From the sequence record PZ502447.1: a stretch of 46,837 nt of DNA; one strand, 5' to 3'. The position numbers and the translations under genes were made by a program. This document shows, piece by piece, positions 2,848 to 39,800 of the stretch. The stretch comes from a phage. A model generated the notes under the pieces. The model worked only from the letters and a program-made list of their open reading frames with translations, was not told where the DNA came from and did not search any database. Numbering within the stretch: the stretch's first letter is position 1; every line of letters starts with the position of its first letter.

Positions 2848-3093
2848 TTATTTATATTCCTGACCAGTCTGAGCTTCGTCAATGGTCTTCGGTTCTTTGC
2901 GTTTTTTCTTACTGTTGATTTCCTGCGCCACTTCTTTAGTTGCCTTGTAGTCACCTTCAATAGTGAGCTTGCCTTCAGCAATCAGGCGCTTAAGTCCATC
3001 ACAAAGTTCATTTGCTTCAATTGTGTCGCCTGGTAAGTATTTGGCACCCTTATAAACGATAAGGCAAGCGCCAGTGTGTTCTAAACGAATCAT
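2848..3093 (-). CDS. hypothetical protein
   Basis: 81 aa ORF with ATG start and GGAG SD, Lys-rich C-terminus; sits between the capsid terminator and connector genes. Confidence 0.5.
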   Translation of the reverse strand: MIRLEHTGACLIVYKGAKYLPGDTIEANELCDGLKRLIAEGKLTIEGDYKATKEVAQEINSKKKRKEPKTIDEAQTGQEYK

Positions 3094-3157
3094 TTTTGTC
3101 TCCTTTGTTTATCTGATTGAGTGATTATAACTCAACAAATCCATTTGGTACAGACGT

Positions 3158-3179
3158 AAAAAAGCCCTCAGAAGAGGGC
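3158..3179 (-). terminator. intrinsic terminator after major capsid gene
   Basis: Minus-strand hairpin GCCCUC-UUCU-GAGGGC followed by a U run (plus-strand A-run 3158-3163), directly 3' of the capsid ORF stop. Confidence 0.6.
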
Positions 3180-3188
3180 CATTTATTA

Positions 3189-4127
3189 CTAGTAGGTAAT
3201 GCCTTTCATTACTGCCATCGTCAGAGGACGATATAAAATCAAACCTGTAGCCTTAGAGGTTACGGGGTACTTAAAGTGCAAGTCCTTAGGTTGACCAGGA
3301 AGCACATTGGTAGCCTCTGGAATCTCGATAGACATATTGAGCGGGTTCTTCTCAAATGCCATGGCAGCCTTACCACCTGCGCCATCGTAGTTATCCAGGA
3401 ACTGAAGATAACGCAGATTGATACCAGAGTTGTTGGTAGCGAACAGCTGAGCGTAACTGATAGAGGTGTTGGGAACCAGCTCTTGCATCAGGCGGCGAGC
3501 GGAAGCAGGCAGCAAAATATCAGTTGCGGTGTGAGTGCCATTAGTCGAAGTCTCGATTGCGTCAATAAGTGCTGTGATATCGGTCATGGCGGCAGCTGCG
3601 GAGTTCCACGTACCAGCAACAACGTTGTTGATGTTAGGATGGTTGAATACGCTAGGAATTCCGTGCGGAGCGGAACCAGACCAAACCAGTTTATCCAGCA
3701 GGTTGTCGTGCGCCTCGAAAGCCAGAGCCTGTTTTCGAGTTGACAGTGATTGACCAGTAGCAGCGCCAGCCTTGATTTCGTCAGTAGAAATCAGGAATGC
3801 GTTACCGAAACGGAACACTTTACCCTGTTTCTCAGTCATGAAAGCATCAACCAGCGGCAGGTCGTCAGAGTAATCAGCGATAATCTGAGCAATACCAACG
3901 CCATTAAATTCTGGATATTCGAAATACTTCGCGTGACCAGGAATTTCATTGGTTACAGGGAAGATATTAACAACGGAGTTGTCCGCATATTCTTTTTCGT
4001 AAGCGCGATTCAGAGTAGCCGCAAGCTGCTTAACGGTCCAGATACCAGCGGCATCAGCTTTCTCTACGCCCATTTGCTCGAGGTGAGCGGTGATTTTTGC
4101 TTGTTCTGCATCAAATTTAATGGCCAT
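3189..4127 (-). CDS. major capsid protein
   Basis: 312 aa ORF with ATG start and AAGGAA SD, flanked by terminators (as expected for a highly expressed gene), downstream of the scaffold gene; composition typical of HK97-fold capsid proteins. Confidence 0.8.
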   Translation of the reverse strand: MAIKFDAEQAKITAHLEQMGVEKADAAGIWTVKQLAATLNRAYEKEYADNSVVNIFPVTNEIPGHAKYFEYPEFNGVGIAQIIADYSDDLPLVDAFMTEKQGKVFRFGNAFLISTDEIKAGAATGQSLSTRKQALAFEAHDNLLDKLVWSGSAPHGIPSVFNHPNINNVVAGTWNSAAAAMTDITALIDAIETSTNGTHTATDILLPASARRLMQELVPNTSISYAQLFATNNSGINLRYLQFLDNYDGAGGKAAMAFEKNPLNMSIEIPEATNVLPGQPKDLHFKYPVTSKATGLILYRPLTMAVMKGITY

Positions 4128-35090: not shown

Positions 35091-35222
35091 TACTCTATCT
35101 CTCTACGGTTGTTTTCTTTCGATGCGTTAATGATGCCGCACGCAAGACACACAGTCCAATTGGTATCACCGATTAATTAATCAAGTATACGCGTATAAAT
35201 CCGTAACTACGTGTAGACATTT

Positions 35223-35280
35223 CTATTGGTTACGTTTTTCACTGCCTTAGCCCAGCTATAGCTCAATGTAAATGGTGCGT
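35223..35280. repeat. duplicated control-region block 1 (copy B)
   Basis: ATTGGTTACGTTTTTCAC...GCCCAGCTATAGCT, matching 15975-16030 (the palindrome is partly degenerate here). Confidence 0.6.
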
Positions 35281-35403
35281 ATATCGTGTATACCGATCTT
35301 GGCGGATGGTGCATAGGTATGGGTGCCGCGCAATACTGTATAAAATCACATGATATAAAAATTATAACCGGAACACTCAAGAACAGTAGTTACATGATAT
35401 ACA

Positions 35404-35468
35404 CAGTAATATATATAATAATAATAATAAGAGTAAAAGGTTGATATATATAGATATTTTAATGTAAC
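35404..35468. repeat. duplicated control-region block 2 (copy B) with (TAA)n microsatellite
   Basis: ATATATAATAATAATAATAAGAGTAAAAGGTTGATATATATAGATATTTTAATGTAAC, matching 16146-16212. Confidence 0.6.
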
Positions 35469-35554
35469 TATGGCGTATCAAGGCGTAACTAGGCGTATAC
35501 GATTTCCCGCGGATGCATATGGTATACATCGAGTTACATCGGTTACGTGTAACC

Positions 35555-35640
35555 AATAGCACGAATAGCTAAAGACAAAGATTATAGATGATGTATGATT
35601 ACTCCATCGAAACGAAATGCTCATTATAAGGAACAAGAAA
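35555..35640 (+). promoter_or_regulatory. conserved promoter module for rightward lipoprotein operon
   Basis: AATAGCACGAATAGCTAAAGAC, 22 nt, TATGAT, then leader CCATCGAAACGAAA, then AAGGAA SD and ATG at 35641. Confidence 0.55.
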
Positions 35641-35886
35641 ATGACTAACTTAATCAAACTTTCAATCATCGCCGCAGCAGCAATCATGATGGTAGGTTGT
35701 TCTTCTGCTCCGCGACCAGACGGATGGTGTGCAACGCAAGCAAACGGCGTGTGCGTGGCTAAATGGGAAAATGGTGTGGTTGTACCGTCTGGTGAAGTTG
35801 ATGTGCGATACGCTGGTATTGAGAGCAAGGCTGGCGGCGGTTACGGTGGCTCTGTTGCTGACCATGGGTCTAAGGAGTGGAAATAA
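35641..35886 (+). CDS. small lipoprotein, candidate Cor-like superinfection exclusion protein
   Basis: 81 aa from ATG MTNLIK (AAGGAA SD); signal peptide ending in lipobox-like MVGC; Gly-rich mature part; located beside the J/receptor-recognition region as cor genes are in related phages. Confidence 0.5.
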
Positions 35887-36848
35887 TGCCTCAAGGAATA
35901 TTGATTGACCTTAATGATGGAAGGCCACCTATGGAAATAACGGCAGGATTAAGAGCGCCCGCTGTGACTGGCTCAATAAATACAAATGGACTTTCGACGC
36001 CAGCATCATCATGGGATTTTGGTTTAACCATGTCCCCAGGCTCAACAGCATTCTGCCTTCCAACAAAGGCTGTGCACGTTGACGCTTATGATGTTGTACC
36101 TGAAGTTTATTATATGAACGGGTTCCAGAAGGTAAATGACGGAACTGGCAGGATAAAACTTAGTAACTTCAATGGCGCAAGAGGTCGTATAATTGACTTT
36201 GCTGGCAATTGCTTTGAGATACTAGCTGCTTCATCCTCTTCAAGCCCGGGCATACTTGTTGAGAACTCAACTGACTTCCTGGCAATTTCAAGTAATTCGC
36301 GGTTAATGTCTGCGGCGTGGGTTGGTGGAATACAGGTTAACGGCGCCGCCTCACTACCAGTCAGTGGGATTCCATTTGGTAAATGGGATAACCCAAACGT
36401 TTCTCTGGAGAGCGACGGTAATACAATTTGGTGCCGCAACATAAACTACAGCGGCATAGATGACGTTGCAGCAAGTACTTACGTACAGTTAGTGATATTC
36501 AGGAATGACCCTCCAGTAGCTGGCCCAGGACTCACAATGTCTAATAGTTCTGGACAGATTGTTTTTTCAAGCGTCAGGCGACCGTTCGTGCTTGGTGGCT
36601 TTATACAAATAACCAATGGTTTCCAGTCAATAAATGGAGGGTTCTTCCCACTGCTCAGGTGCGGCGCTACAACAAGAGTTACTGGAGGGTATAACAACTT
36701 AAGGTACAAGGGAATATGCATGTCTGGTGGTGCCGTAAGGGCAGTTCCAGGCACTGTGATAGGGAACTACTCAACGCAGACGGGAGCCCAATTCCCATTC
36801 GACACAAACATATCAATGGCTCTACCATTCATACCAAACTTCTACTAA
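35877..36848 (+). CDS. hypothetical protein, candidate receptor-binding / tail-tip accessory protein
   Basis: 323 aa Gly/Asn/Ser-rich ORF translationally coupled to the lipoprotein gene and convergent with J. The function is inferred from position only. Confidence 0.35.
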
Positions 36849-36855
36849 AAGAAAA

Positions 36856-36871
36856 GGCCCCGAAAGGGGCC
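36856..36871. terminator. bidirectional terminator hairpin between convergent genes
   Basis: GGCCCC-GAAA-GGGGCC; the minus-strand side is followed by UUUUCUUUU (3' of J); the plus side has a weaker T tract. Confidence 0.55.
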
Positions 36872-36878
36872 TAATCAT

Positions 36879-39800
36879 TTACCACACTCCAACTACAACC
36901 CTTCCACCATTCGGTAAATTAACTGTAATTCCATTATTGTTAATCTGAACAGTGTTGTTGGTTCCGTTAAACGCAAAGTTGCCGTTACTTGCGTACAGAC
37001 TACCCCTTACAGTTGCATTGTTAAGTTCCGCACTGCCTGACTTATCAATGGCCCAACCCTGAGAACCAGCCACGTAGTTATTAGATTGAATCCGGTTACC
37101 AATCTTCGCGTTAGTGATTGAACCATCCTGAATCACTGCGCTTTGAATGAATACCTGATTACCTTCAACTACGAAAGGCAATGACCACTGACCGGATCCA
37201 GAGCTAATGCCGTTACTGATTGCGAACCTGTTAGCATCGAAAATGAACTGACTACGAACGTTGCCACCAGATCCGGTTAGTTCCATGCTCATCCCTGAAT
37301 TGTACTCAACCCCATTGTAAGTAAGACCCAGCTTAATGCCGTACTGCGCACCAATTGAATCAGCTGTAACGTAAGTATCCAGCTTCTCATTTAAAGCAGC
37401 TTCATTCTCACCGAGCCTTGCAGATAAAGCAGTGTCCGCAGTGGTCCTTGCTTGCGTTTCTTCCGCTAGCGCCGTATCAATCCTTGTCAACGAAGCCACA
37501 ATCTCATCATCAATCTGCGCTTTAAGCTGCGTCAGAGCCTCTACGCGAGCCATTTCTTCGTCGGCGATAAGATTCACAGCCTGAACAAATTCGGCCTTCC
37601 TCTTGCCGTTTTCCTTCGTCATTCTACGCACGTCACCATCATTAGCCAGGGCGTTCTCAATTATTGATTCCGCTTGCGCCTGAATAGCTCCGTTTGACTC
37701 AATGGCATTCTGTTGGAGATACTTGAACCCATCTGAGTTTTCTATATCAACCTTAATATCACCAATGATTGACGACACATCATCGCTTGCCATACCCCTT
37801 ACAAAATCAGTCCATGGTGAGACGTTACCAATCTTGTCAATCAGTCGCGCCCTGTACCAGATAACCTTTCCTGCCGGTAATGTAGTGTGCCAATACTCGT
37901 AACCCGGGTAAGGAACTAGCGTTAACAAACTGGCGTTCTCTGGTGAGTAAGTACCATCACCATTGTCGGCTACTTGCTGCAATTCAGTGTATGACGTATC
38001 GGCTGAGTTTTCAGGGAAACCCCACTTAACCCTAATGCCAAATATTTCATCATCTGAAGCTGTGATTACCGTAGGCTCAGACGGCGTTCCAATTTTACCA
38101 GTTAGGCTTGCTGAAACAATGTCAGACCATGCGGATACGTTTTCAGTATCAGAAACAGCCCTCACGCGAACCTGATAAATACCAGCATAAATACCTTCAA
38201 TATCAACTTCTGTGTTTGCTGTGCGCGGTACGTTAATCCAGTTTCCGTTCTCCTTACGCCACTGTACCGTGTAAGTCTTGGCGTACTGAACTTTGTCCCA
38301 GGTGATTACCATTGTTTCAACTGATAAACCCTGCACAACCTTGCTGTAGCTGCTCACCTGAACATTTTCTGGGGCAAGTAGCGTGTCAGGTTCAACGATT
38401 GACGATGGCCTATCCTGAATGTTTACGCCGTAATCAATTTCGTCGTATTTATTCGGGTCGTACTCGACTGCCGTAATGCTGTAACCGAACGCATCGTCTC
38501 CATCGCTGTCTGCTTTTTGAATCCCGGTCACAACATATTGCTGAAGAGCAAGATTTTCCTTATCAATCGCAAATACTGTGTCAGGCTGAGGAGTAAAGCT
38601 AAACGCTGTATTAAGTTGCAGCGTCATACCATCTTCAGATACAGATGCAATGGTCCTGTACTCTGGCATTCCATCAGGCTTGTTTATTAGAATCCTGTCG
38701 CCAGCAGTAGCATCAATCTTAAATGGCACAAAAACTTGCAACCCACTTACTGACTCGATACGACCAGAAAGGTTAAGGGTGTAGTTGCTAGACCATGCCT
38801 GGTCATTAACTGCAATAACCTCACCAATCATTGGAATCATACCTTCCAGACCAGTAGTGAAACTAATAGTCTCGCTGCGAATGTTCGTCTTTAATAACCA
38901 GCGCCCGCGGCGGTTTGCCTCACTCCTGCGAGTACATCCAATAGCTGTAAGGTCGACCGGGTTGTAACCAAAACGCCTTGTTGCCTCTAACTCGAATACT
39001 GGCTCAACATCCTGTTGGTATGAGTTTTCAACGTCATCAAACTGAACGTTGGCAACCGTGTAAAGTGACTTATCGCTACCAAATGTACGGTTGAACAATC
39101 CATCAACAACGTTGTCATTGGTGAATACGTACGATGGTTGACGCGGCTTATCGACAACAATCCCTATCTGCTCGCCGTCATAGAATGTCAGCCCACGGAA
39201 GATAGAGCAAATATCACGGATTACCTGATATGCTTCAACTTTCTGCTGAATGACAACATCACACAGGTAGCGCGGCTCAACTCCACCCTTACCATCTGGA
39301 ACCATCTGGTCACAGAATTGCGCCGCCTCATACAGACCCCACTTATCAATAGTAATGCCAAGCTCTCGCTGGTCAAGTCCGTAACGCTGATTCGTCACCA
39401 AGTCGTAAAGAACCCACGCCGGGTTATTGGAATACGCCATCTTAAAGGTGCCGTTCCAGGTTCCGCTGTAAGTCCTTGTCTCTGGGTTGTAGTTAGTTGG
39501 AACGCGAATCAACTTCCACTTCTTCTTGATTGAAATCGTCGGGATTCCGTTAGGGAAGAGGTCAGAACTGAACTCAACGTAAACCAGCGCTGTAAGTGGG
39601 TAGCGGAATTTAGCATCAATTACTTCCTGATAGGTCGTAATTTGCATGTCGTTAACCAGCGTCGAACTTTCTGAATCTGCCGTGATCTTACGAACCCTCA
39701 CCAACGCACTCGAGAACTCAGCAGGAAGGTTAACCCTGATACTTCTGTCGTACCCGCTAGTTGTCTTGCCATTAGCTACTCCGCGCGTGTACTCAGTGTA

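Follow-up and report, generated by a model that had tools for sequence, protein, structure and literature searches.

A predicted host-recognition and exclusion cassette facing the tail-tip gene of an Rtp-like coliphage

Two small plus-strand genes face the gene of the tail-tip protein in sequence record PZ502447.1, and their position raises the question of whether they unite host recognition with the exclusion of competing phages. The stretch analysed, hereafter the window, comprises 46,837 nucleotides. A reading of the sequence alone had proposed that the pair encodes either a receptor-binding protein (RBP) together with a superinfection-exclusion lipoprotein, or a novel exclusion system. The first of these proposals is supported by the homologues RBPOeko (PDB 9RPT) and Rtp45 (PDB 9RPS). 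By analogy with these systems, the locus very probably serves an Rtp-like coliphage of the T1 family as its cassette for host recognition and exclusion, with the LPS translocon LptD as the terminal receptor.

Genome setting and organisation of the cassette

The window belongs to a T1-like coliphage (Drexlerviridae, Rtp-like). Escherichia phage ES (Drexlerviridae, Braunvirinae) is the nearest relative on record: the 17 kb tested align with it over 93% of their length at a nucleotide identity of 92%. The gene order is that of phage Rtp: homologues of the tape measure, M, L, K, I and J genes are followed by the convergent pair and then by a group of small genes, beyond which exonuclease VIII, Erf, SSB and lateral fibre genes also stand in the Rtp-like order. 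The J-like protein is presumed to be the carrier of the RBP, in keeping with the RBP-on-J arrangement known from the literature (PMC8594841). An apparent difference between the C-termini of the J proteins of this phage and ES proved not to be real, the last 140 residues being 98% identical and the tip identical; tblastn had aligned only residues 1-264 of 301, probably an effect of the low-complexity filter. The NCBIfam profile search gave no informative match. The features of the locus are listed in Table 1.

Table 1. Features of the two-gene cassette and the adjoining tail-tip gene (positions in the window)
Feature	Position	Strand	Evidence or remarks
Conserved upstream block of the cassette	35555-35640	+	Alignment with relatives; sigma-70-like hexamers, leader, Shine-Dalgarno
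Candidate -35 hexamer, AAGACA	35572-35577	+	Promoter scan; 16-nt spacer to -10
Candidate -10 hexamer, TATGAT	35594-35599	+	Promoter scan
Shine-Dalgarno AAGGAA of the lipoprotein gene	35628-35633	+	7 nt before ATG
Superinfection-exclusion lipoprotein (predicted function), Rtp45 family, 81 aa precursor	35641-35886	+	PF24052, PDB 9RPS
Coupling junction: Shine-Dalgarno AAGGAG 35872-35877; stop TAA 35884-35886; ATG 35886-35888	35872-35888	+	Sequence read directly
RBP, DUF6453 / Rtp44 / RBPOeko family, 320 aa, 33.8 kDa; predicted LptD binding	35886-36848	+	PF20051, PDB 9RPT
G+C-rich hairpin AGGCCCC-GAAA-GGGGCCT, 7-bp stem	36855-36872		Terminator scan and folding; in the 30-nt gap
J-like central tail fibre / tail-tip protein, 1141 aa	36879-40304	-	PF24801, PF13550, PF09327; 83% identity to Rtp43

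The stop codon of the lipoprotein gene overlaps the start codon of the RBP gene by one base (TAATG), and the same overlap is found in rtp45/rtp44 and OzMSK_039/038. The second gene had been described as an overlapping reading frame of 323 aa; the overlap stands, and the length is corrected to 320 aa. The longer version would begin with GTG at 35877, which was rejected in favour of the ATG at 35886, because this GTG falls within the Shine-Dalgarno sequence AAGGAG and the homologues of the RBP all begin with M-[PAG]-x-G-I.

The RBP gene ends 30 nt from the stop codon of J. The 3′ ends of the two genes face each other, so that the pair was rightly called convergent with J; the accompanying term "head-to-head" is to be replaced by tail-to-tail, since the J gene lies on the minus strand and the two 3′ ends are separated by this 30-nt gap. 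The hairpin that had been assigned to both genes lies in the gap and is real: the folding energies are -16.9 and -18.1 kcal/mol (z -5.1 and -4.4), and none of the 200 shuffled sequences fold as well. A T-run, however, adjoins the hairpin on the J (minus) strand only. On these features, the hairpin is predicted to be an intrinsic terminator for J and probably ends the plus-strand operon as well, though less effectively.

The two genes had also been credited with a promoter module of their own. A block of about 85 nt, which extends from 35555, the very position at which the sequence-only reading began the locus, to the ATG of the lipoprotein gene, is kept in the alignment with Rtp, OzMSK and the IMG/VR loci L002, L003, L005 and L007, and includes the conserved leader TTACTCCATCGAAACGAAA. 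The DNA further upstream varies among these relatives, and the block is kept regardless. In OzMSK, the cassette is directly preceded by a DNA methylase gene, whereas in the present phage a 550-nt AT-rich intergenic region takes its place; tblastn found no remnant of an OzMSK-type methylase in this region (35091-35640), the best match (E 1.9) being located elsewhere. The conservation of the block whatever lies upstream speaks for a promoter module, but the hexamers are weak (the pair AAGACA-16-TATGAT at 35572-35599 matches in 9 of 12 positions) and shuffled sequences yield promoter-like sites at a comparable frequency (8 in the region vs 5.7 ± 2.7). Judged by the sequence features, a promoter belonging to the two-gene cassette is plausible.

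The order of lipoprotein gene and then RBP gene, convergent with J, is common to Rtp, Oekolampad, OzMSK, ES and the IMG/VR loci L002-L008, and the operon was found in this arrangement in all eight Drexlerviridae-type loci compared (L001-L008). OzMSK (vB_EcoS_OzMSK) carries the same lipoprotein/RBP operon as this phage, as do MSK, Rogue1 and ACG-M12. Searches with tblastn detected homologues of the RBP in 360 phage records and homologues of the lipoprotein in 379; among the matches listed, the two genes are adjacent in each of the eight records common to both sets. The genes also occur apart. In the podophages of the genus Kuravirus, the lipoprotein homologue is located in the early region, uncoupled from the RBP gene. 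In lambdoid prophages, the gene of the RBP homologue lies immediately after J and before the side-fibre gene; in 73 prophage-like loci, the sequence flanking the RBP gene, covered over at most 3 kb, holds no lipoprotein homologue.

The lipoprotein and its receptor-binding partner

Both reading frames are true genes, their matches to Pfam families being far beyond chance. The first product has the signal peptide, MVGC lipobox and Gly-rich body that had been noted for it. It conforms to the PROSITE rule PS51257, with the lipobox MMVGC, Cys20 and Lys6 in the n-region. The signal peptide comprises aa 1-19, the lipidated residue is Cys20 (codon 35698-35700), and Ser occupies both positions +2 and +3. 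The mature part of 62 aa (~6.3 kDa) contains 17.7% Gly and holds Cys30 and Cys38. The residue at +2 is not Asp, as is expected of Rtp45-type lipoproteins sorted to the outer membrane.

Over its full length, the lipoprotein matches the Pfam family PF24052 "Phage_lipoprotein" (E 2.8e-40, 136.6 bits with a cut-off of 27); it also matches phrog_4281 (E 4e-36) and, in the PDB, chain D of 9RPS, which is Rtp45 (E 7.7e-38). The identity to Rtp45 (UniProt Q333D9) is 81% over the full length, and that to the OzMSK homologue, OzMSK_039, is 85%. Since the lipoprotein is 81% identical to Rtp45, the proposal of a novel exclusion system is excluded. Cysteines C20, C30 and C38 are invariant in eight members of the family (36% to 90% identity), as are G28, G36, G45, V48, P49, G51, D54 and R56. 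The present lipoprotein and Rtp45 have an identical signal peptide and lipobox and share Cys30 and Cys38, the gene position and the one-base overlap with the RBP gene, and five of the six residues of strand 30-35 are kept (CATQAN here, CATQAS in Rtp45). The present lipoprotein differs in about 10 substitutions and a 5-residue insertion (SKAGG) in the Gly-rich C-terminal part, and Rtp45 is paired with an RBP allele very different from that of this phage.

The second product is rich in Gly, Ser and Asn (11.9%, 10% and 7.8%, respectively), as had been observed. It matches Pfam PF20051 "DUF6453" over its full length (E 2.3e-137, 457.6 bits with a cut-off of 25) and is also a member of phrog_1265. 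In the PDB, the RBP of Oekolampad (chain C of 9RPT, 9RPW and 9RQI) is aligned almost end to end (E 4.3e-65, residues 2-320 vs 2-321). The nearest experimentally studied RBP is OzMSK_038, with an identity of 92.8%; protein identity is 40% to Rtp44 and about 42-45% to RBPOeko. From the end-to-end homology to the solved chain and the published models of the 93% identical relative, we infer a double beta-sandwich fold with tip loops.

Conservation is distributed unevenly along the RBP. Residues 1-23 (M..GI.ID.NDGR..M.IT.G.R) are almost invariant in nine diverse members, down to 40% identity, and residues 24-110 are highly variable. The positions invariant in all nine are M1, G4, I5, I7, D8, N10, D11, G12, R13, M16, I18, T19, G21, R23, P317 and Y320. 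This pattern agrees with the published model in which the RBP is fixed to the tail by its conserved end and touches LptD with its variable loops (PMC13035648), and residues 1-23 are presumed to be the docking element for the J tip. RBPOeko (bas18_0025) and Rtp44 belong to the same PF20051 family and length class as the present RBP and share with it residues 1-23, the C-terminal P..Y and the gene position convergent with J. They differ from it strongly in residues 24-110 and in several loops, so that the contacts with LptD may differ in detail.

Mosaicism of the RBP gene

The upstream block, the lipoprotein gene and the first ~45 nt of the RBP gene are mostly 77-90% identical to Rtp at the nucleotide level, with two lower 60-nt bins (66% and 57%). 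Over the body of the RBP gene (35930-36889), the identity to Rtp falls to about 45%, most 60-nt bins lying between 38 and 58%, and at the 3′ end of J it is 47-83% (mostly 63-83%). The RBP body is instead related to the Rogue1/OzMSK type, with 77-92% identity in most 60-nt bins and 63% in one. As the body is Rogue1/OzMSK-like and the flanks are Rtp-like, the sequence comparison identifies it as a cassette exchanged within an Rtp-like backbone. The predicted crossover points lie in the region encoding the conserved N-terminus of the RBP and near the J stop codon and the hairpin. Horizontal exchange of RBP loci has already been described (PMC8594841; bioRxiv 10.64898/2026.04.02.716166); the present phage adds a further allele combination, in which an Rtp-like backbone carries a lipoprotein of the Rtp type and an RBP of the Rogue1/OzMSK type.

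Receptor, proposed mechanism and alternative readings

Maffei et al. (2021) described exchangeable "RBP loci" with cognate exclusion proteins beside gpJ in small siphoviruses, one allele of which goes with LptD in Bas01, Bas02, Bas18 and others, Rtp being predicted to belong here as well (PMC8594841). Exclusion lipoproteins were considered probable for LptD phages by van den Berg et al. (2022), who raised their mode of action as a question (PMC9586334). Black et al. (2025) found that two lptD loop (deletion) mutants resist OzMSK and named OzMSK_038 as the LptD-binding RBP (PMC13035648). The association of the DUF6453 family with LptD was confirmed by genome-wide screens in a 2026 preprint (bioRxiv 10.64898/2026.04.02.716166).

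The structural basis was provided by Dunbar et al. (2025; PMC12685063). RBPOeko binds LptD in vitro, and in its complex with LptDE (PDB 9RPT) it is inserted in the extracellular face of open LptDE. In the cryo-EM structure of Rtp45 on LptDE-LptM (PDB 9RPS), the lipoprotein is bound on the periplasmic side between LptE and LptM, the latter being partly displaced; the Cys30-Cys38 disulfide is visible, and strand 30-35 pairs with LptD residues 318-323. A hairpin of Rtp45 extends upward inside the lumen of LptD and shifts EL4 by as much as 20 angstrom, and RBP binding is thereby blocked. AF3 models of the Rtp45 lipoprotein and of the complex were reported to be wrong. The exclusion role of Rtp45 comes from the cryo-EM complex and steric reasoning; no in vivo exclusion assay was found in the text of PMC12685063, and the phenotype is therefore deduced from structure.

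For the present phage, the homologues point to LptD as the receptor. This assignment leans on OzMSK (93%), because the RBP is only 40-45% identical to Rtp44 and RBPOeko. Family membership, conserved key residues and synteny suggest that the two proteins behave as their homologues do. The N-terminus of the RBP would dock, by non-covalent contacts, on the tip of the J-like fibre at its C-terminal end, and the distal loops of the RBP would insert into the extracellular face of LptD (EL3-5 and EL11) in the open state of LptDE, leading to commitment to DNA injection. After Sec export and lipidation on Cys20, the 81-aa protein would be directed by the Lol pathway, in keeping with Ser at +2, to the outer membrane and placed in its inner leaflet. 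From this position it would attach to the LptD barrel on the periplasmic side, in the space between LptE and LptM, and push a beta-hairpin up the lumen, displacing EL4. LptD would thus be kept from the RBP-binding conformation, and infected cells and debris would no longer adsorb LptD-targeting phages. The two genes would be co-expressed by translational coupling at the TAATG junction, with transcription probably starting from the conserved promoter-like block of the cassette and ending at the hairpin shared with J.

Several other readings of the locus were weighed. The earlier label "Cor-like" is retained as a functional analogy only. The systems directed at FhuA, namely pb5/Llp of T5 and Cor of T1, phi80 and N15, follow the same logic of a tail-tip RBP with a small outer-membrane lipoprotein, which likewise acts from the periplasmic side on the extracellular loops of the receptor. 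They have no sequence relationship to the present pair and recognise a different receptor; moreover, Llp works by allostery in a TonB-dependent transporter and Rtp45 by physical displacement of EL4 through the barrel lumen (PMC12685063). That the lipoprotein is itself a Cor- or Llp-type FhuA blocker, as in T1, phi80 or T5, is extremely improbable. The homologue does bear the name "Cor superinfection exclusion protein" in some GenBank records (vB_Ec-G8), and there is a weak match to phrog_1119, the sole Cor signal (E 0.0071), but this match is confined to residues 6-34, that is, to the signal peptide and lipobox. Membership of the Cor family (T1, phi80, N15, HK022) was rejected, as no Cor-type Pfam match was obtained, and the strong matches are those to PF24052, phrog_4281 and Rtp45 on LptDE. 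Nor does the locus show the association of Cor with a FhuA-type RBP, the partner being the LptD-associated DUF6453 protein. An identity with Llp of T5-like phages was likewise rejected: in the PDB, searched with an E limit of 1, Rtp45 was the only phage lipoprotein chain retrieved, although an Llp-FhuA structure exists (PDB 8A60). Just as hard to uphold is the view that the 320-aa protein does not belong to the virion and is instead a membrane-protein moron, a view which takes its support from the annotation of phrog_1265 ("membrane protein, moron") and from the many RefSeq records named "membrane protein". A Kyte-Doolittle scan for transmembrane segments in the RBP found none (19-residue maximum 1.1), and the label is misleading because the protein is without a hydrophobic segment. 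RBPOeko, furthermore, was purified and solved on the extracellular face of LptDE (PMC12685063), and the position of the homologue between J and the side-fibre gene in lambdoid prophages is at odds with a moron.

The remaining alternatives keep the protein families and change the target or the purpose. It is very unlikely that this RBP allele, within a cassette of RBP and exclusion protein, is directed at some outer-membrane protein different from LptD or depends on an additional receptor. The RBP body has been swapped and retains only 40% protein and about 45% nucleotide identity to Rtp44, and the Rtp-like phage Bas01 needs NupG besides LptD by way of a J-tip domain, a domain type which is, however, reported for two phages only (both in bioRxiv 10.64898/2026.04.02.716166). 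Against another receptor stand the block of OzMSK, with its 92.8% identical RBP, by two independent lptD mutations (PMC13035648), the match of the DUF6453 family to LptD without exception so far (PMC8594841; bioRxiv 10.64898/2026.04.02.716166) and the co-encoded lipoprotein of the LptD-binding Rtp45 type. We also regard as unlikely that the main task of the lipoprotein is not the exclusion of competitors but the protection of progeny from adsorption to the debris of lysed cells, or the throttling of LPS export in the course of host takeover. The apparent co-transcription and translational coupling of its gene with a late structural gene would fit late expression, and the Rtp45 hairpin in the LptD lumen and the partial displacement of LptM (PMC12685063) would fit an effect on export; the Kuravirus homologue, however, is found among early genes. 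Such roles are compatible with exclusion, since a single binding event brings about all three. Rtp45 was co-expressed with LptDE without induction and, through leakiness, reached an excess over LptDE, with no toxicity mentioned in the text of PMC12685063; this speaks only weakly against a lethal effect on LPS export. LptD-directed recognition combined with exclusion is the reading that we retain.

A cassette of this type is already known (Maffei 2021, van den Berg 2022, Dunbar 2025), with atomic structures for homologues at 81% identity and E 4e-65. As the structure and mechanism of the system were published in 2025, no new biological question arises from the locus, and its sole local twist is the mosaicism of the RBP body. 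A broader and rather doubtful view is that Rtp45-type lipoproteins are general plugs of the LptD lumen and more than exclusion factors. It is suggested by the 81% identity of the lipoproteins against 40% for the RBPs and by the Kuravirus copy that has no adjacent RBP gene, and it would entail cross-exclusion of all LptD phages and possibly a modulation of LPS export. If this view were true, the variant of this phage, with its 5-residue Gly-rich insertion, would be one allele of a host-manipulating factor.

The locus is one more example of the exchange of RBP cassettes. The LptD receptor call for this phage, made from its sequence alone, would be useful for the design of phage cocktails and for resistance engineering (e.g., the lptD EL11 deletion).

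Sequence boundary against phage Rtp and the region upstream of the cassette

The comparison of the window with phage Rtp reveals a sharp mosaic boundary enclosing positions 35,930–36,889. Nucleotide identity to Rtp is mostly 77–90% from the upstream block through the lipoprotein gene to about nucleotide 45 of the receptor-binding protein (RBP) gene. It falls to about 45% in the body of the RBP gene; at the 3′ end of the J-like gene, it is 47–83%, mostly 63–83%. The RBP body is of the type found in phages Rogue1 and OzMSK, and is placed here inside an Rtp-like (Braunvirinae) backbone.

The cassette is separated from the divergent small genes of the minus strand by an AT-rich intergenic region, and the conserved upstream block begins with a short palindrome-like motif. 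OzMSK and two IMG/VR relatives differ in that a DNA methylase gene occupies the place of this intergenic region; no remnant of the methylase was detectable there in the window. The coordinates of these features and of the podophage genes discussed below are listed in the table.

Features of the upstream region and of Kuravirus homologues
Feature	Sequence	Position	Size	Characteristics
AT-rich intergenic region	Window	35091–35640	550 nt	36.5% G+C vs. 43.9% for the window
Palindrome-like short motif TAGCACGAAT(T/A)GCTA	Window	~35557		Beginning of the conserved upstream block
PF24052 lipoprotein phi32_106	phiEco32 (EU330206)	3447–3728		E = 2.4e-36
Distant DUF6453 protein	vB-EcoP-XT18 (OR757434)	2947–3978	343 aa	E = 4.3e-26

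The lipoprotein of phage ES, the closest relative (OR466728, 1208–1501), is annotated at 97 aa, with a 16-residue N-terminal extension; the conserved Shine-Dalgarno sequence and the start of Rtp45, the Rtp lipoprotein, indicate the shorter 81 aa form. The same record gives the name “capsid maturation protease” to the neighboring exonuclease VIII homologue. In addition, several near-identical genomes of T1-like phages carry unlikely host names. “Pseudomonas phage PsgS01F” coincides with E. coli phage UALMA_PCEc3 in length (44,679 bp) and match statistics, and seven “Campylobacter phage A12x” records belong to the same group, which probably consists of contaminant coliphages or host mislabels.

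DUF6453 homologues in prophage-like loci

A second gene architecture was found in 73 of the 80 IMG/VR loci fetched (L009–L081). Their DUF6453 homologues are 42–47% identical, are located at approximately 3001–3945 in each locus and are oriented in the same direction as the J-like gene, starting at most about 15 nt from its end. Among nine of these loci inspected, a side-fibre-like gene (MSAGTLTLTNNS...) follows in most, and a DinI-like gene is located further downstream in four; the arrangement looks like that of lambdoid prophages. A tblastn search (E up to 1e-3) of the fetched flanks of the 73 loci (up to 3 kb per side) detected no Rtp45-like lipoprotein, and none of the nine inspected loci contained a credible lipobox ORF downstream. 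Temperate phage mEp515, unlike these loci, carries adjacent genes for a lipoprotein and a DUF6453 RBP.

Both protein families in Kuravirus podophages

Podophages of Kuravirus (Gordonclarkvirinae) possess both a PF24052 lipoprotein and a DUF6453 protein, encoded by uncoupled genes. The lipoprotein gene of phiEco32 is surrounded by small early genes and adjoins a tRNA-Arg gene. The DUF6453 gene is located directly after two tail-fibre genes, ahead of the genes for transglycosylase and ejection proteins. Its product is 25% identical to the window RBP and lacks the conserved N-terminal motif of the RBP family; its sole PDB match is RBPOeko, the LptD-binding RBP of phage Oekolampad (E = 7.6e-11). 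In the numbering of phage SU10, gp13 is the distal long-fibre protein and gp16 the short fibre; the SU10 virion paper mentions neither of the intervening numbers, gp14 and gp15. The literature searched yielded no link between Kuravirus and LptD. LptD may be the terminal receptor of Kuravirus phages, with exclusion mediated by the Rtp45-like lipoprotein.
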